A DNA stretch of 64,000 nt from an uncultured bacterium (GTDB lineage: Bacteria > UBP6 > UBA1177): NCBI GenBank assembly GCA_905233945.1, contig CAJOFY010000005.1, forward strand, positions 14,698 through 78,697, in the 5' to 3' direction. Below are positions 9,398-47,726 of the stretch, one piece after another. Positions within the stretch are counted from its first letter, which is position 1. Each line of letters opens with the position of its first letter. The position numbers and the translations under genes are program-made. Under the pieces are notes generated by a model. It made no database searches, had not been told where the DNA came from, and was given only the letters and a program-made list of their open reading frames with translations.

Positions 9398-10996
9398 ATG
9401 AAGTTAGGAAGTAAACTCTTATTTCTATTGGTATTTCTTGCTTTCGGCGGGCTTTGTGCGTCAACTGTCACTGAGACTCTCGGCGCGACATCGACTGTAA
9501 ATCCTTTCAGCTCAAGAATGTTTGCAGGCGGTGCCGAGGCGACTTATTTCAACCCCGCGCTTCTTCCGAAAACGAAAAGAAGTTTCACTCTCAACTTTTT
9601 TTACAGTTACCGCAATCTTGACATAACCCTTTTCGACCGTCCCGAATCGCTCAATATCATAGGCAGTGTTTCGGAAAACTCCGGAATCTACGGTGCGGAT
9701 CAGGTAAACAACGATAAATATGAAACCAATCTTCCATACAAAACCCGTCCGACGGCCGATCTTGACGCACGCGGCAACGATTCATCGAAAGACGGCAGTC
9801 TCTACGGTGCTGTGGGACTTGTTCTCCCGATCTGGAAAGACTATATTGCGCTTGGTCTTTACGGGATGCTCCCGATGGGTTCTTTGATGAAAGAAAAGTC
9901 GTTTTTCGCCGATGAGCGCGAGGCAAATTTCTCGAACTCACTTCATTACGAGCTCTACGACGACAGAATGACCTCCTTCAACATTTCGCTTGCACTTGCC
10001 GGCGGTTACAAGTGGGTTTATGCCGGCGTCGGCCTCAACATCACTGCCGAAGCGAATGTCCAGGCTCCGATTTTCACTCCCGATGCAGGCAAAAACGAGA
10101 ATAAAATCGGAACTTTTGCCGAAATCAAACCGAAACTTGTCCCCCATTTCGGTCTTATCGTGAGACCTTGGGGGCCGATTCAGCTCGGTTTCACGGCGCA
10201 TCTTCCGGCAAAAACAGACATCGATGTCGATACAAAAATCACTTTCTGGTATATCGACCGCGACAAAGAGGCCGAAATCAACAGAAACAGGGTTCATGTC
10301 GCTTACGCTTTTCGACCTCTCGCCCTTTCACCGTCAATTGCAATTGTTGACTACAAATTCGAGAACGAACTTGAGCTGAGCGTAGGTTTCACCGCAATCT
10401 GGCGGCAGTGGTCTAAATACAAAAACCGCTACAATGAAAGCCCTGAATACAATGTTTATTGGGATAATACGATTAAGACGACAGATGAAAACGGCAATGT
10501 TACAGTCGGCGGCTGGGCTTCGGAATATGTCAAAAAATACAAATGGAAAGACAGCTGGGAGTTCACTCTCGGCACAAATTTCAAATACCACGCGATAAAA
10601 ACAGGTCTCGATCTCGGTTACTTCATGTCGCCTGTTCCCAAACAGGACGGCAGAACGAACTATGTCGACAACGACAGAATGAGCATAGCGGCTGGTTTCA
10701 GCTATACTTGGGATCTTCCCGAAAATATGCAGCTTGAGCTCGGCGGCAACTTTCAGGCTCACATAATGCTTGAAAGAACGACGAAAAAGGCTGAAGGCGA
10801 GGCGAATTCGGTCGGTAAGGACGGCAAAACAGTTGACGAGTTCCCAGATTCGGTCTGCGACGGCTTCGGCGACTGTCCGGCAGATACTCCGATAGCGGAA
10901 TCAGAAGGTTTTCAGACAAACAACCCGGGTTATCCGGGATATAAGAGCAGCGGCCAGATTTTTACAGGCGGTTTGTGGCTTACACTTTACTTTTAG
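9398..10996 (+). CDS. Outer-membrane beta-barrel protein (signal peptide, C-terminal aromatic residue)
   Basis: N-terminal signal peptide MKLGSKLLFLLVFLAFGGLCAS; alternating hydrophobic beta-strand pattern; C-terminal ...GGLWLTLYF. Confidence 0.6.
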   Translation: MKLGSKLLFLLVFLAFGGLCASTVTETLGATSTVNPFSSRMFAGGAEATYFNPALLPKTKRSFTLNFFYSYRNLDITLFDRPESLNIIGSVSENSGIYGADQVNNDKYETNLPYKTRPTADLDARGNDSSKDGSLYGAVGLVLPIWKDYIALGLYGMLPMGSLMKEKSFFADEREANFSNSLHYELYDDRMTSFNISLALAGGYKWVYAGVGLNITAEANVQAPIFTPDAGKNENKIGTFAEIKPKLVPHFGLIVRPWGPIQLGFTAHLPAKTDIDVDTKITFWYIDRDKEAEINRNRVHVAYAFRPLALSPSIAIVDYKFENELELSVGFTAIWRQWSKYKNRYNESPEYNVYWDNTIKTTDENGNVTVGGWASEYVKKYKWKDSWEFTLGTNFKYHAIKTGLDLGYFMSPVPKQDGRTNYVDNDRMSIAAGFSYTWDLPENMQLELGGNFQAHIMLERTTKKAEGEANSVGKDGKTVDEFPDSVCDGFGDCPADTPIAESEGFQTNNPGYPGYKSSGQIFTGGLWLTLYF

Positions 10997-11005
10997 GAGG
11001 ATAAC

Positions 11006-12211
11006 ATGAAAAAAATTGCAGTGATTTTAACAGCTTTTGTTATGGCGCTTTTTGTTGTTTCATGCGGCGGCGGCGACAGTGAGACTCCGACGGAGCCGTC
11101 TGGCAACGATACGCCGGATTCCAATACCGAAACTCCGGACGAGGACAAATCTGACAGCGGCAGCACCGAAACACCTGATGCGGCAGCAGATACCGATCCT
11201 GAAACAGATACTGATACAGATTCAAATTCAAACGGTGACGATACTGACACAGAAGAACCGGTCGAAGAAGAAGGCCCGTGTGCAGAAAATCCGTGTGCCG
11301 AAGATGAAACCTGCACGGTTGACGCTACAACAGAAGAAGGCTATATCTGCACATGCATTGAGGGTAAAATCAGGCCGAGCGAAACAGTCTGCGGTTCAAC
11401 ACAGCACGGCAAACTTTATCAGAAATGTGAAAACGGCGACTGGGCAGAAAAATGCACCTGCGATCCCGGCGAATACCCGGAAGTCTGTGGATATTATGCA
11501 CAGAAAATGTGGTTTACCTCAAAATCTAAAGTTTTCACAATCGACCTTGCTGAAGGTTGGACAAGAACATACTTCCACATTGTTCAGGAACAGGAACAGG
11601 ACAAGATCCACATCAAGGCGACATACTGCAACATCAAAATCGACAATTCGATGAGCTCTGTCCTGCAAGTCGTTATGCCGCAGTCCTTCGCGGACGCTCT
11701 GGGAACGGCAGACAAAGAAGCTGTTCTTACAAAAAACGATGACGGCACTTTCGGCTACAAACAGGATATTTTCTGGGAGATCCGCGGAATCGATCCCGCA
11801 TGCTACGGCGACAAACCTGAGGATTACGTTCTTCCGGAAAACTCGAACGATCCTTGTGTTCAGGATTGGGACAACGACGGTCTGCCAGGCATAACCGTCA
11901 CTGCAAAAGGCACAATGAGCGGAACAATGGGTATGGTAGAGAAGTCCTCATCAATAATCCGCGACGGTTACTTTGAAGAAAACGGTGTTTTGAAAGCTTA
12001 TGTTGACTGGACTGACAAGCAGAAAATTCTTTATACGACCAATCAGATGCTCAAAGACGGCTCTGACAACCAGATTAAAGACGAATCCAGCAAATTTGAC
12101 GGTCCGGCGAACTTTATCGAGCAAGTCAAAATCGAAGACGGAAGCGACTGTGCGTTTATCGTTAATAATGCAGGAACGATTTTCTCCCCTGACCCTGTAA
12201 ACCTCAAGTAA
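11006..12211 (+). CDS. Lipoprotein with acidic T/D/E-rich linker and Cys-rich EGF-like module
   Basis: Lipobox VVSC; ~90 aa low-complexity acidic region; CAENPCAEDETCTVD...YICTC Cys pattern; RBS GGAGGA 10 nt after upstream OMP gene. Confidence 0.6.
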   Translation: MKKIAVILTAFVMALFVVSCGGGDSETPTEPSGNDTPDSNTETPDEDKSDSGSTETPDAAADTDPETDTDTDSNSNGDDTDTEEPVEEEGPCAENPCAEDETCTVDATTEEGYICTCIEGKIRPSETVCGSTQHGKLYQKCENGDWAEKCTCDPGEYPEVCGYYAQKMWFTSKSKVFTIDLAEGWTRTYFHIVQEQEQDKIHIKATYCNIKIDNSMSSVLQVVMPQSFADALGTADKEAVLTKNDDGTFGYKQDIFWEIRGIDPACYGDKPEDYVLPENSNDPCVQDWDNDGLPGITVTAKGTMSGTMGMVEKSSSIIRDGYFEENGVLKAYVDWTDKQKILYTTNQMLKDGSDNQIKDESSKFDGPANFIEQVKIEDGSDCAFIVNNAGTIFSPDPVNLK

Positions 12212-12225
12212 GTGACGAAAAATAT

Positions 12226-35160: not shown

Positions 35161-35883
35161 ATGCAAACTCTTGTTTATATCGCAAATACTGAATCTCTGA
35201 AGGAAAACGGGCTTTACAATGCTGCCTTTGACGCCGTCTCGGCAGAGCGCAAAGATAAAGTTCTCCGTTACCGTTTTCTGAAGGACAGAGTGCTTTCGCT
35301 GGGTGCCGAGGTGCTTTTGAGAAAGGCTTTAAGGGAATGCGGGATTGAAATTCCGGAAATTCATTACGGTTTTGAAATAAACGGAAAGCCTTTTCTCAAA
35401 GGGGTCGAAGGATTTGATTTCAATATTTCGCATTCCGAAGATTTTGTAATGGTCGCCCTTTCCGGGAACGAGACCGGCTGCGACATCGAGAAAATCACTG
35501 AGATCGATCTTGAAATTGCAAAAAAATTCTTTTTCCGTGAAGAGTATGAAAATATCGCGGTTCTTCCGGCTTCAGAAGAAAGGAACGAACTTTTTTTCCG
35601 CTACTGGACGCTGAAAGAGAGTTTTATGAAGGCGACGGGGCTCGGAATGAGGCTTCCGCTCGACTCGTTCCAAATACTTATCGGTAATGACGGAAAAACC
35701 GGTGTGCGGCAGAGCGTTGATACAAAAAATTACAATTTCACCGAAATCGATGCTTTTCCGGGATATAAATGTGCCGTCTGCACGGCAGGAAATGCAGCAG
35801 AAACTGATGTGAAAATAGTGGATTTCAGAGAAATTTTAAATGGAGGAAACAATGGCGGTACAGAAGATCACAAAGGGAACTGA
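35161..35883 (+). CDS. 4'-phosphopantetheinyl transferase, Sfp type
   Basis: FNISHS, GCDIE, WTLKESFMKATG motifs. Confidence 0.75.
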   Translation: MQTLVYIANTESLKENGLYNAAFDAVSAERKDKVLRYRFLKDRVLSLGAEVLLRKALRECGIEIPEIHYGFEINGKPFLKGVEGFDFNISHSEDFVMVALSGNETGCDIEKITEIDLEIAKKFFFREEYENIAVLPASEERNELFFRYWTLKESFMKATGLGMRLPLDSFQILIGNDGKTGVRQSVDTKNYNFTEIDAFPGYKCAVCTAGNAAETDVKIVDFREILNGGNNGGTEDHKGN

Positions 35884-36145
35884 AGTAACTTTGAAAGTCG
35901 ACGGCTGGCTTGACACGCAGTCCTCGCCGGAACTCGAAAAGGCTGTTTCAGAGCTTGAAAGCAATGTCGGATCACTTGTTCTTGACCTTGAAAAACTTGA
36001 ATACATCTCCTCCGCAGGGCTTCGCCAGATAGTCGCTGCGCACAAAAAGATGAACGGAAAACTCACTCTCAGGCATGTTCAACCCGACATTATGAGCGTG
36101 CTCAGCATGGCAGGATTTGACAAAAGACTCCATATCGAAGCATGA
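35852..36145 (+). CDS. STAS-domain anti-sigma-factor antagonist (SpoIIAA/RsbV-like)
   Basis: STAS fold pattern with conserved phosphorylatable Ser (YISSAGLRQI); start at MAVQK after GGAGGA. Confidence 0.65.
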   Translation: MAVQKITKGTEVTLKVDGWLDTQSSPELEKAVSELESNVGSLVLDLEKLEYISSAGLRQIVAAHKKMNGKLTLRHVQPDIMSVLSMAGFDKRLHIEA

Positions 36146-38091
36146 AACACTCCATCCAGAAAGAGATAATCGTAGTACTTGCGCTGGAGCTGATCGCGGT
36201 CATTGCCGCATGCGCACTCGTCACCTACCGCAATTTCTATTCGTCGGCACTCAAAACTTCCCGCGACGATTCCAGAAACGCGGCAAAGGCTGCCGGAACA
36301 ATAATCTCGGAATACGGACTTGATGCCGTGACTGATCCGGAGAACAAAGAACTTTACGGCAAAATACGCCGCAGACTGAGAGCGATATGCAAAGCTTTCG
36401 AACTTGATTATCTTTACATCTACACGATCGAAGGAAACGACGAGTGTCACTACATCATGGCCGTTGCCTCAAAAGACGAAAATGACCGCATCGCGGCGGA
36501 ACGGCTGGGGCTCGGCACGATAAGAGACTGTCATCCGCTCCATGCTCAGGAACAGGCTGCGATAAAGGGGGAAATAAGCGACGAACTCTTGATCCTCAGA
36601 AACGAATTCGGCGGGGATATGACCTGGATAGTCCCGTTTTTCGATAATAACGGCAAAGCCAGGGCTTTGATCGGCGCTGATGATGCTCTATATCTGTACA
36701 ATGCAGGGATCACCAGACATTTCTTTGTGGCACTGATCCCGATCTCGCTGCTCATCTTTATCGCCCACATGGTGCTTTTCTTTATAATCCACCGCAGGAT
36801 AGTGACCCCCGTGAAAACAATCGCAAACCGTATGCGGACTTTCGATCCGTCGCATGAGGAAGAACCTTTGCAGGTAAATTCGCAGGACGAGATGAGATCC
36901 ATTGCCGAAGCTTTTGAAAAAATGTCGCACGACATTCACCTCTACATCGAAAACATAGCTTCAATCACCTCGGAGCGCGAGCAGTCCAGAGCACAGCTTG
37001 ATGTTGCAAGGAAAATACAGTACGGCATGGTTCCAGCTTCCTTCAGTGAAAACAGAAACGGTGTCGATGTTTCCGCACTGATGCAGCCGGCAAAAGAGGT
37101 CGGCGGTGATTTTTACGACGCTTTTACCCTCGAAAACGGCAACTACTGCGCTCTGATCGGCGATGTTTCAGGCAAAGGAGTCGGCGGCGCACTGTTCATG
37201 GCACTTACGAAGTCGATACTTCGCGACAGAATGAAACAGATCATGGATCCAGCGGCAGTTCTCAACAAAGTCAACGACGATCTCTGCGCCCAGAATCCGG
37301 AAGGGATGTTCGCAACTGTCTTCGTGCTTGTGATCGATCCGAAAACGGGAGTCGTCACCTATGCCAACGCCGGTCACAATGCGCCCCTGCTGATATCGGG
37401 CGGCGAAGTCTCGTTTCTGAATCCAGAACCCGGGATCGCGCTCGGTCTTTTTGAAGACGCAGGCATCAGAAACGGAAATCTGACTTTGAAAAAAGGCGAA
37501 GGATTCCTGCTTTATACCGACGGAGTGACCGAAGCCGTGAACACGGAAAAAGCTTTCTACGGCGCGGAAAGACTTCTTTCTCTTTTGAAGAATAACACTC
37601 CGAAAGAGAGTTCTGCTGCTGTAAACGCTGTCAAAAACTCGGTTGAGGAGTTTTTCACCGGCTGCGATCAGTTCGACGACATAACCGTTCTTTCGCTTTT
37701 CTTCCGCAGCGGAGAAACGGTCTGTGAACTCAAGCCTGCACTCGAAGATTTCAGGATCGTGAAACAGACTGTAACGGAGAAATGTCCCGGCAGTCCCAAC
37801 GCTAAAAAAGCACTTCTTGCGTGCGAAGAAGCATTCGTGAATATAGTCAGCTATTCCGGCGCATCATACATTAAATTCTCGTGTTCAGCAGGCGGCGGCA
37901 TTCTCACCGTCACCCTGAAGGATAACGGCATTCGCTTCGACCCCTTTGCCGGCGAAAGTTCCGCAGAAAAGGATTTCGAATCTTTCGACAAAGGCGGCAT
38001 GGGTATCAGCCTGATAAAGCAGATAGCCGAAAAAACCGAGTGGAGATTCGAAAACGGAAACAATGTTCTGACATTGACTTTCAAGATATAA
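36142..38091 (+). CDS. Membrane sensor protein with fused PP2C/SpoIIE-type phosphatase and C-terminal HATPase_c (RsbW/SpoIIAB-like kinase) domain
   Basis: Two TM segments bracketing ~170-aa extracytoplasmic domain; PP2C motifs GGDFYD, IGDVSGKGVGGAL, YTDGVTEA; C-terminal GGMGISLIKQIAEKTEW ATP-lid; ATGA overlap with STAS gene. Confidence 0.65.
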   Translation: MKHSIQKEIIVVLALELIAVIAACALVTYRNFYSSALKTSRDDSRNAAKAAGTIISEYGLDAVTDPENKELYGKIRRRLRAICKAFELDYLYIYTIEGNDECHYIMAVASKDENDRIAAERLGLGTIRDCHPLHAQEQAAIKGEISDELLILRNEFGGDMTWIVPFFDNNGKARALIGADDALYLYNAGITRHFFVALIPISLLIFIAHMVLFFIIHRRIVTPVKTIANRMRTFDPSHEEEPLQVNSQDEMRSIAEAFEKMSHDIHLYIENIASITSEREQSRAQLDVARKIQYGMVPASFSENRNGVDVSALMQPAKEVGGDFYDAFTLENGNYCALIGDVSGKGVGGALFMALTKSILRDRMKQIMDPAAVLNKVNDDLCAQNPEGMFATVFVLVIDPKTGVVTYANAGHNAPLLISGGEVSFLNPEPGIALGLFEDAGIRNGNLTLKKGEGFLLYTDGVTEAVNTEKAFYGAERLLSLLKNNTPKESSAAVNAVKNSVEEFFTGCDQFDDITVLSLFFRSGETVCELKPALEDFRIVKQTVTEKCPGSPNAKKALLACEEAFVNIVSYSGASYIKFSCSAGGGILTVTLKDNGIRFDPFAGESSAEKDFESFDKGGMGISLIKQIAEKTEWRFENGNNVLTLTFKI

Positions 38092-38759: not shown

Positions 38760-39467
38760 TTAAGCAGCCTCGACCATTGTACGGCAGACATGCACTGGAG
38801 CAAAATGCCCAGCTTGCAGCAGTGACACATTGCCGACTCCGGAATAAGTTCTGCCGGCTATCTCTATGCCGGTTTGCACGCGGAAAAAGCCGGGACGCAG
38901 CCGTTTTGTGGCGAGACGCTGAGGATTCATCCTGATATAGCGGAACATTGTTTGCAGCTGTCCGCGGCGTGACAGCGGGCGGACAAAAGGCATTGCTGTG
39001 AAAACGGGATCCACATCTAACTTTTGTTTATCCCGAATACCATTCGGGTTATTTTCATTGTCATCATCATTTTGTCCATTACCTCGAATATTATTCGTGT
39101 GAATCGACAAACTATACTGTCGCCCGATTTTCTTTGCCCCTTGCCAGAAACCGCGCACAGCTGTCATAATGCCTTTTGGCATGGGCTGTGTAACATAGAG
39201 TATTGTGTGTAGATGATCCGGCATAAGGCAATATTGCAAAGTACGGATTTCAGGATGAAAATCGGAAATTTTGAACATAATACTGATTATTTGTTTTCCT
39301 AACTCTGTAGATTCCACTCTTGCTTGTGCAGGGTCATTTTCTGGAATAACAAGTGAGCCTAAGAGTGGCTCGCGGCTCGGAATCACCATCGTAACATGGT
39401 AAATACCGATTCCTTTCCATGCCGTGCCGGGCTTTTGCCAGTGCCATCTGTCAGGCTCATTTTCCAT
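38760..39467 (-). CDS. REP-associated tyrosine transposase-like (IS200-like Y1 HUH transposase, RAYT)
   Basis: IYHVT, PDHLHTIL (HuH) and RYIRMNPQR (catalytic Tyr) motifs; preceded by conserved leader repeat. Confidence 0.6.
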   Translation of the reverse strand: MENEPDRWHWQKPGTAWKGIGIYHVTMVIPSREPLLGSLVIPENDPAQARVESTELGKQIISIMFKISDFHPEIRTLQYCLMPDHLHTILYVTQPMPKGIMTAVRGFWQGAKKIGRQYSLSIHTNNIRGNGQNDDDNENNPNGIRDKQKLDVDPVFTAMPFVRPLSRRGQLQTMFRYIRMNPQRLATKRLRPGFFRVQTGIEIAGRTYSGVGNVSLLQAGHFAPVHVCRTMVEAA

Positions 39468-39527: not shown

Positions 39528-40559
39528 TTAAATTTTTTCTTCCAATATTCCGCTAACCAATTTGCGCAGTTCCTCACGGTTTGGCAAATACAGTTCATAT
39601 TTTGAGACAAACAGATTGCTGTCCATTCCATAAGTTGTATACTCAACAAGCAGTTCATCTTTGTTGTGACTCAGAATAATTCCTATAGGCGGATTGTCGT
39701 TCGGTTCGTTTTCTTCCTTTGCAAAATAGCCCATATACATGTTCATTTGCCCGATATCTTCGTGTTTTACTGAATTTTTCTTTAAATCAATCAGCACAAA
39801 GCACTTCAAAATCCGGTGATAAAAAACCAAATCCACATGATAATGAACATTGTTTATTGTAATCGGATACTGCCGTCCGATGAACGCGAACCCTTTACCG
39901 AGTTCAAGCAGAAAGGTTTGAAGATTGTCAATAATCCGCTGTTCCAGATCACTTTCGGAATAACGCTCCATTTCAGGAAGTCCAAGAAATTCAAGCGTGT
40001 ATGTGTCTTTTACGACATCCATTGGTTTTTGAATTTCAATGCCTGTTTTTGCCAGTTCAAGAATTCCTTCCTTGTCTTTGCTTGCCGCAAGTCTCAAAAA
40101 CAGACCGGAATCCATCTGGCGGCGGAGGGAACGGACATCCCAGTTTTCTTTCACACATTCTTTTTCGTAAAAACTACGTTCAAGATCATCGTCTATTGTT
40201 ATTAACTCGCAGATATGGCTCCATGTTAATTTGTCAGAAGTCTGACAAAGTGGATATAGCAGGTAAAACTTCCGCATATTATTGAGATTTGGGCGGCTGT
40301 AACCTCTTCCCAAACGCATTGTCAGAATTTTAGCAAGATTTGTCAGCATTGAAGTTCCGTATTTAGCCTTTTTTCCACCGTCCTGCTCGAACTCGACAAT
40401 GTGATGTCCAACAGACCAATAAGTCTTGACCATGACGGCACTTATATTAAGTGCAAGACACGATTTTGTGAGATTCACTTCGTCAACAATAGTATTGGCA
40501 AGAACATTCAGTCTTTCATTTGTTTGAATTTCATCGTTTTTTACAAGTTCTTTATTCAT
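39528..40559 (-). CDS. YhcG-family PD-(D/E)xK nuclease (DUF1016)
   Basis: N-terminal GRGYSRPNLNNMRKFYLLYP (DUF1016_N-like) and C-terminal D...LIDLK PD-(D/E)xK motif. Confidence 0.65.
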   Translation of the reverse strand: MNKELVKNDEIQTNERLNVLANTIVDEVNLTKSCLALNISAVMVKTYWSVGHHIVEFEQDGGKKAKYGTSMLTNLAKILTMRLGRGYSRPNLNNMRKFYLLYPLCQTSDKLTWSHICELITIDDDLERSFYEKECVKENWDVRSLRRQMDSGLFLRLAASKDKEGILELAKTGIEIQKPMDVVKDTYTLEFLGLPEMERYSESDLEQRIIDNLQTFLLELGKGFAFIGRQYPITINNVHYHVDLVFYHRILKCFVLIDLKKNSVKHEDIGQMNMYMGYFAKEENEPNDNPPIGIILSHNKDELLVEYTTYGMDSNLFVSKYELYLPNREELRKLVSGILEEKI

Positions 40560-40606
40560 TTATATTTCCTCCAAGCATTCATGGTGGTCATTGGGGTTTG
40601 CTTACT
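40555..40606 (-). repeat. Conserved gene-leader repeat, copy 3
   Basis: TTCATTTATATTTCCTCCAAGCATTCATGGTGGTCATTGGGGTTTGC. Confidence 0.8.
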
Positions 40607-42041
40607 CTCTTTCTTTTACCAGTGAATAAGTTCTGTTCTTGTTCGCACCGTTGGCAACAATTTTTCCCTCTTCAACAAGTTCGGAAAGATAATCCTTTGT
40701 TCTCGATAGTTTAAGCCCGATATACAGCGAAATATCCTGTGTTTTGGCCTCGGTGTTATCTTTTAGATATTCCAGAATCTTATCTTTAAATTTTATCGCC
40801 GATTTATCGCCGATTTTAGTATTTATCACCGATTTATCGCCGACTTCAGTATTTATCGCCGATTTATCGCCGATTTTGGTGTAAGAGGGACGATAAAAAT
40901 TCACCCGCAGCATATCGCCGATTTCTAAGAACTCAGGTCTTTTGACGCCGTATTCATCACATTGAGAAAAAATGCGCTTAAATCCGGTTCCCCAGCCTTC
41001 AACAACATCTATTTTTTCTAAAGTGCGTGCAAGCGTCCTGTTTCTGACAGAAGAGCGGCCTGACAAGGCTTCTTCCAGTGTCAAAGAACCATATATGCTG
41101 CCGGGAGAAGAAATCTCGACTCTGTCGTCATAAACTGCGACCTGAACACTGGAACTCATCTGGTAGTTGCGGTGGATCACAGCATTTATGATAAGCTCGC
41201 GGATGGCTTTAGGCGGAAGTTCGTATCTTTCTTTGCGGACAATACCGTCTATTTCCACAGCCATGCTGAGATAGTTCAAAACGAATTTATATGCGCCGTC
41301 TATCTGCTCGCAAAGCGGTCCTTCATATTCCTTTTTATCAAGAAAATCGACGCGTTCCGTCCCTCTGAATCTTGCACACTGAATGCGTGAAGTATAGTCA
41401 TGTTTTCCCAGAAGAATAGCGTAAGCATTTGTCGCGATATCCTGCTTGATGCTGGTGAAAAGATTCAAGTTTTTCAATTCGTTCTTTGTGATTTTTCTCT
41501 CGGCGCGTTCCGAAAAATCCTTGCAGAGATATTTGATATCAGAAGCTTCAACTTTCAGTGAAGTAAACGGCAGTTCGTCATAATAAACATGGCGGCCACG
41601 GTTTGAAAGTTCATCCAAAGCCGTCCAGTCAGCATTGCGAGTCGTCGCTCCGCGCCTGATATAAGTTCCGTTTTCCTTACCCTGCGATTTCACATAATAC
41701 GGCGTGGCGTTTCCCGGAAAAACAGTTACAACAAGAAGCTGTGCGTTTTCGATGTTTTCAGCCGTTATGTCGAACATGATCTGCGGCTCGCATGTGTGGG
41801 CGATAGTGTCGGCAATACTGTCTTTCAGCTCGAACAGATCAATACTTTTCGGAATTCCGACAAATTCCCGCTTGTCATTCACGCCGATCACGAACTTGCC
41901 GCCAGCTCCGTTCGCAAAAGCGACAATTGTTTTCACCCATTTCCGCGCATCCTGCGGAAGTTCCTGCTTAAATTCAAGAGTTCGGCTCTCGCCGGATTTT
42001 ATTTCATCGAGTAAGGTCATTGTGTTTTGCTCCATTTTCAA
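40602..42041 (-). CDS. Schlafen-like AlbA_2 (divergent AAA) + HATPase_c_4 ATP-binding protein with C-terminal wHTH, paralog 1
   Basis: N-terminal ESRTLEFKQELP...IVAFANGAGGKFVIGV AlbA_2 signature; central ELIINAVIHRNY histidine-kinase-like ATPase; 3x10-aa tandem peptide repeat before wHTH. Confidence 0.65.
   Translation of the reverse strand: MKMEQNTMTLLDEIKSGESRTLEFKQELPQDARKWVKTIVAFANGAGGKFVIGVNDKREFVGIPKSIDLFELKDSIADTIAHTCEPQIMFDITAENIENAQLLVVTVFPGNATPYYVKSQGKENGTYIRRGATTRNADWTALDELSNRGRHVYYDELPFTSLKVEASDIKYLCKDFSERAERKITKNELKNLNLFTSIKQDIATNAYAILLGKHDYTSRIQCARFRGTERVDFLDKKEYEGPLCEQIDGAYKFVLNYLSMAVEIDGIVRKERYELPPKAIRELIINAVIHRNYQMSSSVQVAVYDDRVEISSPGSIYGSLTLEEALSGRSSVRNRTLARTLEKIDVVEGWGTGFKRIFSQCDEYGVKRPEFLEIGDMLRVNFYRPSYTKIGDKSAINTEVGDKSVINTKIGDKSAIKFKDKILEYLKDNTEAKTQDISLYIGLKLSRTKDYLSELVEEGKIVANGANKNRTYSLVKERE
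40793..40882 (-). repeat. 3 x 30-bp in-frame tandem repeat (KIGDKSAINT units) inside paralog 1
   Basis: TTTATCGCCGATTTATCGCCGATTTTAGTA x3 with minor variation. Confidence 0.85.
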
Positions 42042-42202
42042 ACAATCTCAGCAAAATTTACTGTATTTCCCCAAAAAATCAAATTGAATTTTGCGGTATT
42101 TCGACTTGATTTTAGAGAATCATTCTCAAACGAAGGATTTGTGAAAATATAAATGAAATCTTTGTCTTTGCTGTCCATTTTCAACCCGCACTTAAAACAT
42201 TT

Positions 42203-45200
42203 TTACTTCTTGAACTCCAAATATTCCGCGTATTTTTGCGCCATAAGATTTTTGATGTAACTTTCCATATACGCATAATCGGGCTTACCTGCGGAATCTA
42301 CAGGAAGAATAAGCTGATAAGAAGACAACCTGCTTTGTGTTATAGAATGAGCATGACCGAATCTGTCTGCTTGTTGAGAAATAATTTTACTTAAAAAAAT
42401 AAGTTGAAATTTATTCAACACCTGTTTGTGATATAAAATCGTAACATGAGAATCAACTGCCATAAAAGCGGGTTGATAATAAGCAAGTCCAGCTCCTCCA
42501 TCTCCATCATTATTTAAAGATATGCAGTTTCCTTCAAAATGTTTCTTGGAGTTTTGTGAAACAAACGCTTTTAAGCCATTATTTATTTTTTTGGCAGAGA
42601 TTAAAGGAATTTTACCTTCCTCAAGGACATTCATATTATTTTGATTTCCTTTTTTAAACATAAACAAGTTTGTTATTGGAAACGCCTTCCATTCCTTATC
42701 CTCAAGTTTTTCTATTTTGGGATTTACTTTTCCTTGGGTAGTCTTGAGGCATTCACTCAGCCGTTTTGTGGCAAAGCCCCGATATTCTTTAATTTTATGA
42801 TCTTCAAGTTCTTTTATATATGATTCCATGAAATTGTAGTCTATTTCACCTTTTGAATTTACAGGGAGGATGATATTCTGTGCTCTCATACGGTTTTCAT
42901 TGAATTTATACGCATATAAAAATTTAGATTTTTGTTGCAGGATATTTGTTTTCATAAATAACAAGGAAAATTTATTATCTTTCCAGTTTCTTAGATGAAA
43001 TCTTTTCACGTCATCTGAAAAAATGCATTCATAAGGATGATAGAAGTTCTCAACAACACTGCCGTTATAATTTACGCCAAGAACATTTTTATCAAGGGAC
43101 TTATTTTCATTTGACACGAAATTGGTGATCCCATTGTTTGAATCAGAGGCTCCGATAAAAGGTCTTTCTCCTTGTTTCATCTCTGATGCCACAAGGCGTT
43201 TTCCCGCTTTTATCTCAAAAATATCAGTAAGTTTCGATTCTTTCCAATCTCGACTTGTCAGTTCTTTTTTAAAGTTTTTTTTTACGTTTTCCGAATTATT
43301 ATCGTCTTCAAAAAGATATTTTCTACCTTGCATGATCATTGAAAACTCAAAAGTAAGGTAATCTCCGACAGTCTTTTCAAAATCCTTGTCGGTAGGAATC
43401 TCGTCATTGAAATAATAAAAACTGTGCAGCCATTCATCTTCCGCTGTGATTGCCGTTTTTACGCAGAACTTCGTCGGAGCTTCAATGCGGTTAAACCACA
43501 CATCAAGCAAATGCTGCCTTTTGTCTTTTGCGCTCTCTGTCTCCAAAAGCCCGATATGCGGAGACACCTTAAAGCCGTCATCCTCAAAATTCACGAATTT
43601 GCATATCTTCTCTTTGTCATGCGGTACCCCAGCTGTAAAAACAGCAATGCACGGAATTACGCCGATTCCATAAAAGGTATCTTTCTGAAGCATAATCGTT
43701 CCTTCGAGCGTGTGCTTTTTCAAAATCGAATTTTTTATCTGCTGTTCTTCCTTTGATTTTCCGGTCATTGAACTTTGAGGAACTATCACGGCACATCTTG
43801 AATTTGGAAGAAGTGAATCCAAAAGATGTTCCGTAAAAGCAATTTCATAAAGACTCGGATCTTTTTTTGTTCCCTGAGAATAAGGCGGATTCAACATTCC
43901 GACTGTTGCTCTGAAGTCTGTCTGAAGCTGTTTCGGATTTTTAGCAAGAAAATCATCACAGTGCAAATTGCTTTTGCCGTCGCCTCGAAGAATCATGTTT
44001 GTTGTCGCTACAGTGAACATATCCGGACGAAGCTCTATTCCGAACAATTGATTTTTACGGATATGCTGTTGTTCACTTTCTTTTGTACTTTGCGAAAGCA
44101 TTTTATGAAGCGCAGCGACAAGAAAACCGCCTGTTCCGCAGCACGGGTCAAAAATTCTGTCGGTAGTTTTCAAATCAAGCAAATCGCAGAAAAGTTCCGT
44201 AATATGGCGTGGAGTAAGAACTATTCCTAAAGTTTGACCACTACCACCGGAATAGCGCATAAACTCGCCGTAAAAACGACCAAGATAATCCTCAGCCGAT
44301 TTTGTATATTTGATTGACTTATAAAGTTTTTCGTCCAGAAACTTTGCAAAGAATTTCAGCGGAGTTTCGCCAAGAGTCGCATTTTTTTCGTTTAACTTTG
44401 TACTGTCTTTTATGATTGCGAACTGCGAAAGAATTTTATCGATTTTTGTTATCGGCGATAAATCCGTTCTTTTGAAACTTGATTCAATCGCATTGTAAAT
44501 TTTCTGTCCGTCGGTTACGAAAGAGTCTCCGTTTAGTGAATCTATGCTGAAATTTCCATGGTCACGCTCACGCAAAGCAAGAAGAATTCCCGAAACAACA
44601 AGCGGTTTTTCTTCATCTTTCATATTACCGTAGTTTCTCAAATGCTCGTGCAATACTTTTGCATCCGCCAAGATCTCTTCCAGTTCTTTTTCTTTGTCGC
44701 TCGATTCCTTCAAGACATCGCAAAGATAATACTCGTCGATATTTTTTTCATTAAACGAAATAAAAGATTCAACATCTTCAAGCTGGTCAAACAGATTTTG
44801 CCTGTCATCAACAAAAAGCGGAGTAATCCGATGATTTTTTTCATTTCCGGAAACTCCTAAAGCAAAAACTTTTTTATAAGTCGTATTCTGAATCAAATGT
44901 TTCGCATAGAACAACGCGCCGTTCACGGCAAACTCAACAACATCTTTAGTCTCAAGGCTGATAAGTTTATTTGAATCGTATTTCACATGATTTTCGAGTT
45001 TCGGCTTATCTTCAATTACAATAATAAAATCTTTTACAACGCCCACATATTCAGGAAAACCGACTTTGCCAGTGCCGCGTTTTGACGCTGTTTTTAAAGC
45101 CTCATCAATTTCTTTTATTTCGCTTCCCTGTGCATCTAATTCTATTCCGGCTTCTTTCAGTAAATCGTGAACCCACAAATCGGTTTTAACTTCTTTTTTT

Positions 45201-45205
45201 GCCAT
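42203..45205 (-). CDS. Single-chain restriction-modification protein: N-terminal putative PD-ExK nuclease + HsdM-like N6-adenine methyltransferase + two HsdS-type target-recognition domains (Type IIB/IIG-like)
   Basis: MTase motifs LGIVLTPRHITELFCDLL, FDPCCGTGGFL, MLNPPYS; two TRDs each followed by conserved helix (DYNFMESYIKEL / DYAYMESYIKNL); N-terminal FPEYVGVVKDFIIVIEDK possible nuclease motif. Confidence 0.7.
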   Translation of the reverse strand: MAKKEVKTDLWVHDLLKEAGIELDAQGSEIKEIDEALKTASKRGTGKVGFPEYVGVVKDFIIVIEDKPKLENHVKYDSNKLISLETKDVVEFAVNGALFYAKHLIQNTTYKKVFALGVSGNEKNHRITPLFVDDRQNLFDQLEDVESFISFNEKNIDEYYLCDVLKESSDKEKELEEILADAKVLHEHLRNYGNMKDEEKPLVVSGILLALRERDHGNFSIDSLNGDSFVTDGQKIYNAIESSFKRTDLSPITKIDKILSQFAIIKDSTKLNEKNATLGETPLKFFAKFLDEKLYKSIKYTKSAEDYLGRFYGEFMRYSGGSGQTLGIVLTPRHITELFCDLLDLKTTDRIFDPCCGTGGFLVAALHKMLSQSTKESEQQHIRKNQLFGIELRPDMFTVATTNMILRGDGKSNLHCDDFLAKNPKQLQTDFRATVGMLNPPYSQGTKKDPSLYEIAFTEHLLDSLLPNSRCAVIVPQSSMTGKSKEEQQIKNSILKKHTLEGTIMLQKDTFYGIGVIPCIAVFTAGVPHDKEKICKFVNFEDDGFKVSPHIGLLETESAKDKRQHLLDVWFNRIEAPTKFCVKTAITAEDEWLHSFYYFNDEIPTDKDFEKTVGDYLTFEFSMIMQGRKYLFEDDNNSENVKKNFKKELTSRDWKESKLTDIFEIKAGKRLVASEMKQGERPFIGASDSNNGITNFVSNENKSLDKNVLGVNYNGSVVENFYHPYECIFSDDVKRFHLRNWKDNKFSLLFMKTNILQQKSKFLYAYKFNENRMRAQNIILPVNSKGEIDYNFMESYIKELEDHKIKEYRGFATKRLSECLKTTQGKVNPKIEKLEDKEWKAFPITNLFMFKKGNQNNMNVLEEGKIPLISAKKINNGLKAFVSQNSKKHFEGNCISLNNDGDGGAGLAYYQPAFMAVDSHVTILYHKQVLNKFQLIFLSKIISQQADRFGHAHSITQSRLSSYQLILPVDSAGKPDYAYMESYIKNLMAQKYAEYLEFKK

Positions 45206-45304
45206 GCTAAACTCTCCTTGACAACCAAAACCTGCTGGTTGCTATGTACTATAAAAAATCCCCTTTCTTATTTCAATAGCGTAAATATCTAATTTTATTG
45301 AATG

Positions 45305-45360
45305 ATTTTGAAATTTGGATGTTAGACAATCTTGACTCGGAGAATGAGAAAATGCGTTGT
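45305..45360. repeat. Intergenic repeat R1 copy A (TTGAAATTTGGATGTTAGACAATCTTGACTCGGAGAATGAGAAAATGCG)
   Basis: ~85% identical to 46940-47000. Confidence 0.7.
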
Positions 45361-45411
45361 TAATGTACTGATATTTTTAACGACAAATAATAAATCGTAA
45401 AAACATAAGCT

Positions 45412-46866
45412 TCAGATCTTTTTGTTTAGAATATATGTTCTATTGCGGTTTGCACCTTTTGCTATAATTTTACCGGATTCAACAAGGTCATATAGATAGA
45501 ATTTTGTCTGCGTAGCCTTCAAACCGAGCATTTCGCTGAGTTCTTTCAAAGCGCACTCTTCGTGGTTTTCCAAATATTCGAGGATAAGTGATTTAGCGTT
45601 CCTTTTTGTCGTCGGTTTATCGTCGGTTTCTGGTTTTGTCGTCGGTTTATCGTCGGTTTTTGGTTTTGTCGTCGGTTTATCGTCGGTTTTTCGGTAAATA
45701 TTCGTGCGGATTGCAATTTCCATATCAATAAATTCAGGCTCGGCAAGACCGGAATCTTTAAGCGAATCTATAATTCGCGGAATTCCTGTTCCCCATTGCT
45801 CTATCAAGCGCATATAATGAAAAGCATTGGCTATAGCCTCGTTGCGGACTTTGGAAAACCCCTGTTTCATACGTTCAATTGTTATTCCTTTAGGCAGTCC
45901 GCCGGGAGAAGTGATTTCAAGCCGGTCATCAAAAATCGCAATCTGAATATGGGATACTTCAAGATAACTGCGGTGAAGAACAGCATTTATGATCAATTCG
46001 CGAATCGCTGTCGGAGGAATTTCATAGACATCCTGCCTGAAAAGCCCTTTTATTTCAGCACCAAGATGGATGTTGCGCAGAACAAAACTGTAAGCATCTT
46101 CAATCTGCTGCTGAATCGGACCAGTAAACTCCCGTCGGTCAACAAACACACTTCTGTCGGTTCCTTTAAAAACCGCACACTGTATTTTCGCGCACCACAA
46201 CGAATTTTTTGAAAGCAGATCAAAAGCATTCGTCCTGCAAAGCCTGCCGTTGTTTTCATATAAAAGTTGCCACGAAAGCAGATTGTTCTTTGTCAGCGGT
46301 TTAATATTCCGCCTCTGTTCGTCAGTTTTGCAGTTTTTAATTGCTGTCGCTTTCAAAGAATTGCAAAAAGATCGAAGTTCTTTTTCCAAAACAAACTTTT
46401 CACGCTGAACCGTTCTATCAAAACCCGTGTTTGAACCTTCAAACATCAGAGCTCTAATGGTGTCTCTGTCAGCAAGCCGCGTAGTTGCGGAAAGACGCAC
46501 GAAACAACCGTTTTCAAGCCCCAAAGACTTTATGTAGTAAGGCGTGTGCTCACCCGGATAAATTTGTGCGACAATAACCGTTTTATTCTGTAAAGTCTGC
46601 AAAGAAACATCACACATAATCTGCGGCATACAGTTGTCGTAAATCATATTGGAAACAGAATCGGCCGTTTTAAAAAGATTATCACTCTCTATCCCGACAA
46701 CATCATGCGTCTCATCATCTATTCCGAAAATAATCCGCCCTCCGTGCCCGTTTGCAAAAGCGACAACTGTTTTCAAAAATTTTATATGGTCATCCGGAAT
46801 CTGCCGCTTGTATTCCAGAGTGTTTGATTCAGGTTCTATTTTTGAAAAAATTTGATTTTTGATCAT
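45412..46866 (-). CDS. Schlafen-like AlbA_2 + HATPase_c_4 ATP-binding protein with C-terminal wHTH, paralog 2
   Basis: Same architecture as 40602..42041 (~35% identity); 3x10-aa tandem repeat TDDKPTTKP(K/E). Confidence 0.65.
   Translation of the reverse strand: MIKNQIFSKIEPESNTLEYKRQIPDDHIKFLKTVVAFANGHGGRIIFGIDDETHDVVGIESDNLFKTADSVSNMIYDNCMPQIMCDVSLQTLQNKTVIVAQIYPGEHTPYYIKSLGLENGCFVRLSATTRLADRDTIRALMFEGSNTGFDRTVQREKFVLEKELRSFCNSLKATAIKNCKTDEQRRNIKPLTKNNLLSWQLLYENNGRLCRTNAFDLLSKNSLWCAKIQCAVFKGTDRSVFVDRREFTGPIQQQIEDAYSFVLRNIHLGAEIKGLFRQDVYEIPPTAIRELIINAVLHRSYLEVSHIQIAIFDDRLEITSPGGLPKGITIERMKQGFSKVRNEAIANAFHYMRLIEQWGTGIPRIIDSLKDSGLAEPEFIDMEIAIRTNIYRKTDDKPTTKPKTDDKPTTKPETDDKPTTKRNAKSLILEYLENHEECALKELSEMLGLKATQTKFYLYDLVESGKIIAKGANRNRTYILNKKI
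45605..45692 (-). repeat. 3 x 30-bp in-frame tandem repeat (TDDKPTTKPx units) inside paralog 2
   Basis: GGTTTTGTCGTCGGTTTATCGTCGGTTTTT x3. Confidence 0.85.
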
Positions 46867-47083: not shown

Positions 47084-47371
47084 TCAGTTGTTCTGCGGAA
47101 GGAATTCGATCTTGAGTTTCATTCCCATTCCGGTGGCAAGACGTTGCAGTGTTCTGAGTGAGGGATTGGCGTTGCCTTTTTCTATTCTGCTGATGTCGCC
47201 TTGTGCGATACCGGTGCGTTCGGAAAGTTCCTTCTGGGTGAGTCCCGATTGCTTGCGGGCATCGATAATCGCCTGAATTACGGCGTGTTCCGGCTGAAGA
47301 AGCTCGTATTCCGCCTTAAAATCGGGGTTTTTTAGCTGTTCTTTGAGGAAATCGTTAAATTTTTCGCCCAT
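47084..47371 (-). CDS. higA: HigA-family antitoxin (XRE HTH)
   Basis: LTQKELSERTGIAQGDISRIEKG helix-turn-helix; downstream of toxin gene with overlap. Confidence 0.75.
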   Translation of the reverse strand: MGEKFNDFLKEQLKNPDFKAEYELLQPEHAVIQAIIDARKQSGLTQKELSERTGIAQGDISRIEKGNANPSLRTLQRLATGMGMKLKIEFLPQNN

Positions 47372-47726
47372 TTTTATCTCCGTTTCTACGCAAATAATCA
47401 GCTCTGTATTTTTTCGCTCGTTCTATTTCGGCGGCCGGAGTTTTCTGCGTTTTTTTGATAAAACCGTGAGTCAGAACAATCCGCCGGTCAACATAAAAGA
47501 AATAGAAAACTCGCATTGCATTTGTTTCAGCCTGGGCTCTCAGCTCAAAAATCCCGTCCGACAAATATTTGGAATACGGCTCTCTCAAATCGTATCCGTT
47601 ATCCTGCAATATCGAGATCATGTCCGCCATTTTTGCCCTCATTTTGACACCCAGAGAAAGAAGAAAATCTTTTGCCGGCTTGTCACCATTCTCTTTCTCA
47701 TAAAATTCAACTTCAAAATTTGTCAC
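47355..47726 (-). CDS. higB: HigB/Gp49-like RelE/ParE-superfamily toxin
   Basis: Gp49/DUF891-like sequence (FELRAQ...RVFYFF...RIVLTHGFIKKTQKTP); toxin-first arrangement. Confidence 0.65.
   Translation of the reverse strand: MTNFEVEFYEKENGDKPAKDFLLSLGVKMRAKMADMISILQDNGYDLREPYSKYLSDGIFELRAQAETNAMRVFYFFYVDRRIVLTHGFIKKTQKTPAAEIERAKKYRADYLRRNGDKNGRKI

Follow-up and report, generated by a model that had tools for sequence, protein, structure and literature searches.

Phased DNA motif arrays in the linker-coding sequence of Schlafen-type ATPase genes with a C-terminal winged helix

We analysed a 64,000-nucleotide stretch of DNA (the window) from an uncultured bacterium of the UBP6 lineage (UBA1177; assembly GCA_905233945.1, contig CAJOFY010000005.1, positions 14,698 to 78,697 of the forward strand), focusing on two paralogous genes, A and B, that lie on either side of a restriction-modification (RM) gene and each carry a short tandem repeat in frame. 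A preliminary description of the window had read these repeats as variable number tandem repeats (VNTRs) in the linker ahead of a winged helix-turn-helix (wHTH) domain. The observation as first noted was confirmed, and its interpretation was partly supported. The two genes and their repeats comprise the following features.

40602..42020, minus strand: paralog A, predicted Schlatpase-HTH protein of 472 amino acids (SLFN/AlbA_2, GHKL ATPase, disordered linker and winged helix; Pfam and AlphaFold2)
45412..46866, minus strand: paralog B, predicted Schlatpase-HTH protein of 484 amino acids (Pfam; 100% identical to cluster P0121)
40791..40877, minus strand: array of A, three 30-bp units, each made of TCGGCGATAAA TCGGCGATAAA and an 8-bp spacer
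40863-71, 40852-60, 40833-41, 40822-30 (the GGTGATAAA variant), 40803-11 and 40792-800, minus strand: 9-mers of the A array
45604..45691, minus strand: array of B, three 30-bp units, with two 9-mers alternating at 11 and 19 bp
45676-84, 45646-54 and 45616-24, minus strand: B 9-mer GACGATAAA, read D-D-K
45665-73, 45635-43 and 45605-13, minus strand: B 9-mer GACGACAAA, read xP-T-T-K
40620..40805, minus strand: winged helix of A, residues 406-467 (AlphaFold2 secondary structure; weak HTH_24/FaeA match)
40671-40709, minus strand: recognition helix of A, LSRTKDYLSELVE
40626-40649, minus strand: wing of A, GANKNRTY
45427..45600, minus strand: winged helix of B (alignment with A; weak Pfam HTH match)
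45478-45516, minus strand: recognition helix of B, ATQTKFYLYDLVE
45433-45456, minus strand: wing of B, GANRNRTY

The two proteins were 40% identical over their full length. Both matched the Pfam families SLFN_AlbA_2 (PF04326; 1.9e-25 for A and 1.7e-23 for B) and HATPase_c_4 (PF13749; 3.9e-24 and 3.4e-28), with weak matches to C-terminal winged-helix families (HTH_24/FaeA). The Ex4(E/D)xK nuclease motif was found as ESRTLEFK at residues 11-18 of A and as ESNTLEYK at residues 13-20 of B, and E11, E16, and K18 were invariant across an alignment of 33 homologs. The GHKL boxes ExxxNAxxH (N box), DDRxEIxSPG (DDRVEISSPG in A), and WGTG were intact in both proteins and likewise invariant in the alignment. 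An AlphaFold2 model of A, based on 33 homologs, had a mean predicted local distance difference test (pLDDT) score of 85.6. Residues 381-407, which correspond to the repeats, were the sole part with a pLDDT below 50 and showed no secondary structure, and residues 406-467 formed three helices and a beta wing (block-mean pLDDT ~79-88). The mechanically called open reading frame (ORF) of A spans 40602-42041 on the minus strand with TTG at 42041 as its first codon; translation most likely begins at the ATG at 42020, which would give a protein of 472 amino acids identical to P0276. Judging from these sequence features, A and B are almost certainly intact prokaryotic Schlafen proteins of the Schlatpase-HTH type. 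NCBIfam held no named family for either.

A recent preprint (bioRxiv 10.64898/2026.05.29.728809) describes the Schlatpase as a supradomain of SLFN and the PF13749 GHKL domain, whose C-terminal tails are mostly HTH domains; a GHKL domain occurs in 58.6% of 103,533 prokaryotic SLFN proteins, binding of ATP makes the protein tetramerise into its active tRNase form, and there is exchange of the module with type I RM specificity subunits. According to a second study (Nat Microbiol 2026, PMC13056530), HisKinase-HTH fusions make up 19.2% of prokaryotic Schlafens, 69.6% lie within 10 kb of a defence gene, and defence has been shown for other Schlafen fusion classes. A 2025 paper also linked AlbA_2 domains from bacteria to defence systems. 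A and B resemble this Schlatpase-HTH (or pSlfn HisKinase-HTH) class in their AlbA_2 domain with Ex4(E/D)xK, PF13749, short C-terminal HTH, and defence or RM neighbourhood. Prokaryotic Schlafens have only recently been shown to be antiviral tRNases, and the combination of a GHKL ATPase and an HTH is their commonest class, without a known trigger or control mechanism. Published relatives of the class are ATP-dependent, oligomerising tRNA nucleases that act in phage defence, and these activities are known only for such relatives.

Tandem Repeats Finder detected a 30-bp period in both genes, with 2.9 copies in A (40792-40877, 89% matches) and 2.9 copies in B (45604-45691, 98% matches), no indels, and an 11-bp sub-period in both arrays. 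Each array lies between the last strand of the ATPase domain (NFYR in A, NIYR in B) and the winged helix. In frame, the A units read KIGDKSAINT, EVGDKSVINT, and KIGDKSAIK, and the B units read KTDDKPTTKP three times, a decapeptide of the TDDKPTTKPK type. At the DNA level, each 30-bp unit contains two 9-mers placed 11 bp apart, with the consensus GGCGATAAA in A and GACGAYAAA in B, and each array presents six cores in the same orientation at spacings of 11 and 19 bp. The A 9-mer is read as G-D-K and, 11 bp later, as x-A/V-I-N/K. The two phases of B have diverged (GAT vs GAC) and are homogenised at the 30-bp period; a 76%-identical B ortholog carries GACGATAAA in both phases. We counted eight occurrences of GGCGATAAA in the window against 0.75 expected, five of them inside the A array, and 23 occurrences of GRCGAYAAA against 3.8 expected. 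The domain architecture of the two paralogs, the in-frame decapeptides as first given, their position before the wHTH, and the relatedness of the DNA units between the paralogs, all part of the preliminary description, were borne out.

The array proved to be a feature of the family. Conserved peptide patterns at the N-terminus were used to collect 80 genome loci, which makes the sample blind to the C-terminus, and the linkers were delimited with a core hidden Markov model. This set and other loci yielded 77 non-redundant genes, in which a linker 8-mer present in at least three exact copies was taken as an array. Such arrays were found in 66 of the 77 genes, with the copies spread across two or more codon phases in 41 and confined to one phase in 25; the other 11 had fewer than three motif copies. 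Among 250 spacings between successive copies, 97 were 11 bp, 67 were 12 bp, and 29 were 19 bp; 177 fell between 10 and 13 bp, and 154 (62%) were not a multiple of three. A strict tandem peptide repeat was present in 26 of 123 full-length representatives (33-58% identical to A), in every case within the same linker, 59-91 residues from the C-terminus. These 26 peptide repeats have unrelated sequences, with periods of 4, 7, 8, 10, or 14 residues. The linkers of the top matches to A and B showed the repeat pattern as well. The repeat linker, whose conservation among homologs had been put forward as a check on the preliminary description, is thus a hallmark of the family, and the 3 x 30-bp arrays of A and B are a local instance of it.

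Many Lachnospiraceae genes contain pure 11-bp arrays, such as six to nine copies of GCATCGGAGAA translated in three frames as ASEKHRRSIGE, in which unit variants have spread at the 11-bp level. Plasmid-borne relatives with 25-27% identity also have arrays: ATGTCGGAGAA(A) in three copies spaced 11 and 12 bp in Runella, TCGGAGAAAA and TACGGTGAAAAC units in Emticicia, and ACTAGGGTAAAA in three copies, with the core ACTAGGG, in Aliarcobacter. The core TCGGAGAA is common to Firmicutes (Lachnospiraceae) and Bacteroidota (Runella and Emticicia), and ACTAGGG is common to Fibrobacter and Aliarcobacter, in each case with the same wHTH type. In proteins of 565-567 amino acids, the array and the wHTH are duplicated as one tandem block (P0122/L097, 7001-8698; L017, 1831-3519). 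Archaeal gut methanogens carry the same family with arrays, namely a Methanomassiliicoccus locus (L023; MVDKTVDKMTDKPK, 42-bp period) and a Methanomethylophilaceae locus (L068; TTQK). These archaeal copies indicate inter-domain transfer within the gut and rumen community.

To the extent of the Schlafen literature covered, which includes a targeted full-text search, flexible linkers are described and there is no mention of coding repeats or DNA motif arrays within them. In the covered portions of the Schlatpase-HTH papers, A and B differ from the published proteins by adding coding repeats with DNA motif arrays to the flexible linker. Both the family of proteins and its association with RM and defence islands are therefore already published, and the phased, frame-independent motif array appears to be undescribed.

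We compared the codons of the array in 14 non-redundant A-type orthologs (Treponema, Fibrobacter, Bacteroidales, and unclassified metagenome-assembled genomes (MAGs); core identity 59-99%). GDK was encoded by GGC-GAT-AAA in 48 of 49 cases (0.11 predicted from core codon usage), and A-I-N/K by GCG-ATA in 38 of 38 cases (0.043 predicted). The base preceding A-I-N/K was G in all 38, though the residue to which it belongs varies (S, T, V, M, or A). Outside the linker of the same orthologs, columns with identical residues shared the codon in 50% of cases (34% for G and 34% for A). The spacers between the 9-mers differ from ortholog to ortholog, and the spacings were 10, 11, 12, 14, 19, 20, and 23 bp. 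Since the copies are mostly 11 bp apart, translation of the motif involves more than one codon phase. The third frame of GGCGATAAA contains a stop (CGA-TAA) and is never used, GCATCGGAGAA is stop-free in all frames and is read in all three, and the frames used by the motif are exactly the stop-free ones. These codon patterns suggest that the phased motif is very probably under purifying selection as nucleotides, irrespective of the frame. The linker peptide is a by-product and would serve as a passive tether. What looked like a coding VNTR was apparently selected as nucleic acid and not as peptide, which bears on how repeat-containing ORFs are read in genome scans.

The motif appeared to vary together with the recognition helix of the downstream wHTH. 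The helix GLKxSRTK was paired with GGCGATAAA in 17 genes, including two with an otherwise B-like wHTH (L093 and L096), and GLKxTQTK was paired with GACGATAAA in four genes. Two further pairings occurred in one gene each: STTK with GCCGATAAA (L031; motif bases GC) and DRTR with AACGATAAA (L067; motif bases AA). SRTK thus accompanies GG, and TQTK accompanies GA. In classical readout, Arg prefers G and Gln prefers A, and the Arg-to-Gln change paired with the G-to-A change runs in this direction.

We also searched for copies of the motif elsewhere. The window contained no extra copies beyond chance and none in promoters, and 1.05 Mb of related loci contained 51 copies against 32 expected, with no regulon or promoter operator. 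Consensus scans for internal promoters and terminators gave chance-level results, with none at the arrays. Phage targets were rejected as well: two 9-mers 11 bp apart were found in just six viral contigs, none of them in a Schlafen gene, a number that a rough estimate places near chance. One viral contig (L088; IMG/VR 3300025735_000233, ~12170-12215) carries two copies of GTGGCGATAAA and two degenerate copies at 11-bp spacing; this looks like an iteron-type array in apparently non-coding DNA, with the same core as the paralog A motif.

PhoB/OmpR-type winged helices bind pho boxes head-to-tail as 11-bp direct repeats, and plasmid iterons are bound by winged-helix Rep proteins, with site and protein co-evolving. 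The arrays resemble pho boxes and iterons in being direct repeats of a short core, phased at ~11 bp (or 22 bp) in one orientation. Pho boxes and iterons sit in promoters or origins, whereas the arrays of A and B are translated and lie inside the coding sequence of their own putative reader. We therefore regard self-binding as the likeliest reading, and we tentatively propose that the array may provide head-to-tail direct-repeat sites for the winged helix of its own gene.

In the proposed mechanism, the array would be a cis-acting nucleic-acid element inside the linker-coding DNA, and the winged helix encoded immediately downstream would bind its direct repeats head-to-tail. The putative target of the wHTH (residues 406-472 in A and 421-484 in B) would be TCGGCGATAAATCGGCGATAAA or its GA variant. 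As one module, motif and reader would move, be duplicated, and evolve together. The consequence of binding might be autoregulation of the gene, or tethering or silencing of a latent nuclease; with a change in copy number there would be more or fewer sites and, passively, a longer or shorter tether. A further step, a translated iteron-like 'self-operator' that would keep the protein on its own gene, or regulate it through that gene, until infection sets it free, strikes us as doubtful. If it were true, array and reader would form one specificity module and represent a new wiring of a toxin-like immune effector, which might hold for much of the Schlatpase class (published count 60,692 proteins, mostly with HTH tails). 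For the HTH of the largest prokaryotic Schlafen class, the motif array thus points to a ligand that can be tested directly.

Several points weigh against self-binding. Binding of the wHTH to the array is so far putative, being predicted from sequence. The array is intragenic, and there are no extra motif copies in promoters or elsewhere in the loci, which leaves no evident role as a classical operator. Nor are the spacings of 11 + 19 in A and B perfectly helical. The helix and motif pairings stem from a small number of independent events, and helix and motif are also linked physically; shared ancestry could therefore produce their co-variation. Peptide selection in two or three frames combined with concerted evolution could mimic nucleotide constraint, because copies switch frame through the turnover of 11/12-bp units. 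The arrays of 25 of the 77 genes are single-phase 12-bp repeats, which could be ordinary peptide repeats, and 11 of the 77 genes keep the wHTH with fewer than three motif copies in the linker. In addition, two HisKinase-fused Schlafens gave no defence in E. coli in the published panel (PMC13056530).

Copy number differed among close relatives. A metagenome scan with a frame-agnostic DNA pattern returned only the window's own allele, and the allele spectrum was therefore taken from protein clusters of at least 90% identity. The B-type cluster contained alleles with three or two units (484 vs 473/474 amino acids), the A-type cluster alleles with 1, 2.4, 3, 3.4, and 4.4 units (455 to 489 amino acids), and two sister clusters alleles with two or three. 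At the DNA level, the alleles differed by exact 30-bp blocks or by a 12-bp GGCGATAAAnnn insertion, and every length variant within the clusters was in frame. The reading of the arrays as VNTRs with differing copy number was thus upheld at the scale of populations and of evolution. Arrays of ACTACCCAAAAG (TTQK) with at least nine copies run into contig ends at two loci (L045, ~9237; L048, 6455). The linker arrays thus break short-read assemblies, and copy numbers in MAGs may be underestimated as a result.

These alleles bear on the preliminary interpretation, a coding VNTR in which slipped-strand mispairing would change the length of a peptide linker and tune the reach or recognition of the wHTH. 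The TAEL tetrapeptide (12-bp) repeats in HsdS of EcoR124I/EcoR124II provide the precedent, as their copy number changes the recognised sequence. Like the HsdS repeats, those of A and B are short, coding, and in frame in an RM-associated gene, and their copy number differs between alleles, here in exact 30-bp steps among alleles at least 90% identical. The near-identity of the units at the DNA level (98% in B) also fits such a model, and a disordered linker would leave the length free to change. However, the TAEL repeat keeps two DNA-recognition domains apart as a rigid spacer, whereas the repeat of A and B is conserved as DNA and connects an ATPase core to a single wHTH through a disordered region, which in A had a pLDDT below 50 and no secondary structure. 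Such a tether would lack the fixed geometry of the coiled-coil spacer of HsdS, and tuning by length does not account for a 9-mer that is conserved across phyla and frames when the peptide and its length are not. We consider this explanation unlikely.

A second explanation gives the arrays no function: a permissive disordered linker would gather slippage products, and per-frame peptide selection together with concerted evolution would freeze the motif. Rapid birth and death of 11/12-bp units would shift copies between frames. Array architecture varies widely among orthologs. Each position of GGCGATAAA is, by reasoning on the code, non-synonymous in one of its two usable frames, and the diverged phases of B, homogenised at the 30-bp period, also agree with concerted evolution. 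This explanation nevertheless still needs purifying selection on short disordered peptides in two or three frames at once. It also leaves unexplained the strong preference for 11-12-bp spacing, the retention of one TCGGAGAA core by both Firmicutes and Bacteroidota, and the match of Arg/Gln with G/A. We therefore judge it improbable, to much the same degree as the linker-length model. If the arrays were neutral, they would still be a useful marker, and they would also be a cause of assembly breaks, as with the two 12-bp arrays that end contigs.

An element acting at the RNA level, whether through mRNA structure, by pausing ribosomes between domains, or as a site to which the nascent protein binds autogenously, seems quite unlikely. 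A motif that is independent of frame and lies on the coding strand would suit RNA just as well, GGAG-like cores occur in some arrays, and the FYR codons of some orthologs give TTTATCGCC, which is complementary to the 9-mer. On the other hand, GGCGAUAAA is not Shine-Dalgarno-like. Structure as the main explanation was rejected, since the arrays folded no more stably than shuffled sequences (z = -1.24 and +0.05) and an Rfam search of the arrays was empty. Quasi-palindrome correction against the FYR codons (TTTATCGCC) was likewise discarded: the upstream complement is imperfect or absent in A and B of the window and in L009/L010, and the 9-mers stay perfect.

ON/OFF phase variation, in which gain or loss of an 11-bp unit would truncate the protein before the wHTH and switch between a tethered or regulated and a free nuclease, is very improbable: perfect 11-bp tandem units exist (two per 30-bp unit here and up to nine in a row in Lachnospiraceae) and are homogenised at the 11-bp level (for example in L076), and the repeat copy number differs among close relatives as at contingency loci, but no allele frameshifted at the array was found in ~84 genes retrieved through N-terminal patterns, the sole truncated genes (L036 and L043) simply have no wHTH region, and the length variants within clusters are all in frame. 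A B-type allele from a Treponema MAG (P0284, 429 amino acids) is truncated by a frameshift in an A-run after the third repeat, outside the array, and ends in …TDDKPTIKKRCKNAYP and a stop; an assembly error is one possible cause, variation of the homopolymer another.

The same supradomain of SLFN and GHKL occurs in the SLFN-pAgo protein RzAgo, and the PADLOC models pAgo and Aga match both A and B through this module. The sensor of RzAgo is an Argonaute core with an RNA guide, whereas the extra domain of A and B is a 60-residue winged helix after the repeat linker. The preprint describes the active tRNase of RzAgo as an ATP-driven tetramer and reports an inactive filament state (bioRxiv 10.64898/2026.05.29.728809).

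Paralogs A and B belong to a low-GC island (35-38% across 42-48 kb vs 46-50% around it; island genes 37-44%), in which the following further genes were annotated.

42203..45205, minus strand: single-chain RM enzyme of 1000 amino acids (Pfam, PADLOC, and HsdM relatives in PDB)
39528..40559, minus strand: YhcG/DUF1016 PD-(D/E)XK nuclease (Pfam YhcG_C 1.5e-57, DUF1016_N 2.5e-37)
38760..39467, minus strand: ORF of 235 amino acids at the downstream island edge (gene call in L002)
47084-47371, minus strand: HTH_3 gene (Pfam HTH_3 7.7e-14)
47355-47726, minus strand: Gp49 (HigB-like) gene (annotation from the identical locus L002)

The RM enzyme between the paralogs has an N-terminal nuclease region, a gamma-type N6-adenine methyltransferase, and two target-recognition domains (Pfam N6_Mtase 2.2e-33 and two Methylase_S matches). 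It matched the PADLOC models REase_MTase_IIG (2.5e-160, residues 2-636) and Specificity_II (3.8e-74). By these matches the middle gene is assigned as a type IIG restriction-methylase with fused specificity in a type IIB-like layout; the match to the single-chain type IIB/IIG enzymes extends over its whole length. The array as a recognition site of this neighbouring enzyme was judged unlikely, because the same motif accompanies quite different RM systems.

The preliminary description had the paralogs bracketing the RM gene. This holds for the haplotype of the window and for a 100% identical locus from another sample (L002), and it fails in the closest genomes, L006 and L007, where the block of A and YhcG is 98.8% and 96% identical, respectively, and both B and the type IIG gene are missing. 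In L006 this block is preceded by an Eco57I-type enzyme and a 1482-amino-acid protein, and in L007 by unannotated ORFs of 1345 and 845 amino acids. A fixed A-RM-B architecture was therefore ruled out. Among other relatives, L003 has three consecutive Schlatpase paralogs beside ResIII-Eco57I, the L005 gene adjoins GmrSD and an EcoRI-type methylase, those of L093, L094, and L099 are part of type I RM operons, that of L096 adjoins an nSTAND NTPase, and that of L097 adjoins AbiTii. All eight related contexts were defence-associated and six of them contained RM systems, with L099 in addition. The association of homologs with RM, a check put forward in the preliminary description, is thus the rule in this clade. 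The association is therefore with RM and defence hot-spots generally and not with this RM enzyme.

The three Schlatpase-HTH paralogs of L003 (8448-14577; 479, 489, and 565 amino acids) have a YhcG gene between them and differ in their linkers, with four SDLK repeats (12-bp period) in the 479-residue paralog and nine copies of GGCGATAAA in the 489-residue paralog. Some 3.6 kb downstream, apparently inside the 565-residue gene, there are three further copies of the top A-type 8-mer, CGGCGATA. In the window, the YhcG gene lies 42 bp downstream of A and matches the PADLOC candidate defence gene PDC-S02 (1e-129). YhcG/DUF1016 is co-conserved directly downstream of A-type genes (window, 39528-40559; L006; L003, 11579-12739), with two copies in L006 (9462-10487 and 11379-12416), and in L093 fragments of SLFN and DUF1016 adjoin each other. 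From this gene order, an A-type Schlatpase and YhcG may form a two-gene system.

At the upstream edge of the island, the Gp49 and HTH_3 genes overlap (47084-47726, minus strand) and resemble a toxin-antitoxin pair; in PADLOC, the HTH is similar to RM controller proteins and to CapH as well. The 235-residue ORF at the downstream edge gave no match in Pfam or PADLOC. A 46-residue ORF lies between the RM gene and A (42045-42185, minus strand) and was called in the identical locus L002 at 9843-9983, with no family match on record. The window derives from an uncultured bacterium of the rumen or gut, and its nearest genome matches were reindeer and goat MAGs with 97-99% identity. A non-ribosomal peptide synthetase of 2424 amino acids adjoins the island (48024-55298, plus strand), with two Condensation/AMP-binding/PP-binding modules and a terminal reductase-like domain, and a 4'-phosphopantetheinyl transferase is encoded at 35161-35883. 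The island is also bordered by a SpoIIE-type phosphatase with HAMP and HATPase_c_2 domains (36142-38091, plus strand). A small ORF upstream of the phosphatase gene (~35850-36145) is annotated as a STAS-domain protein from the identical locus L002, and by their domains the two look like a partner-switching module.

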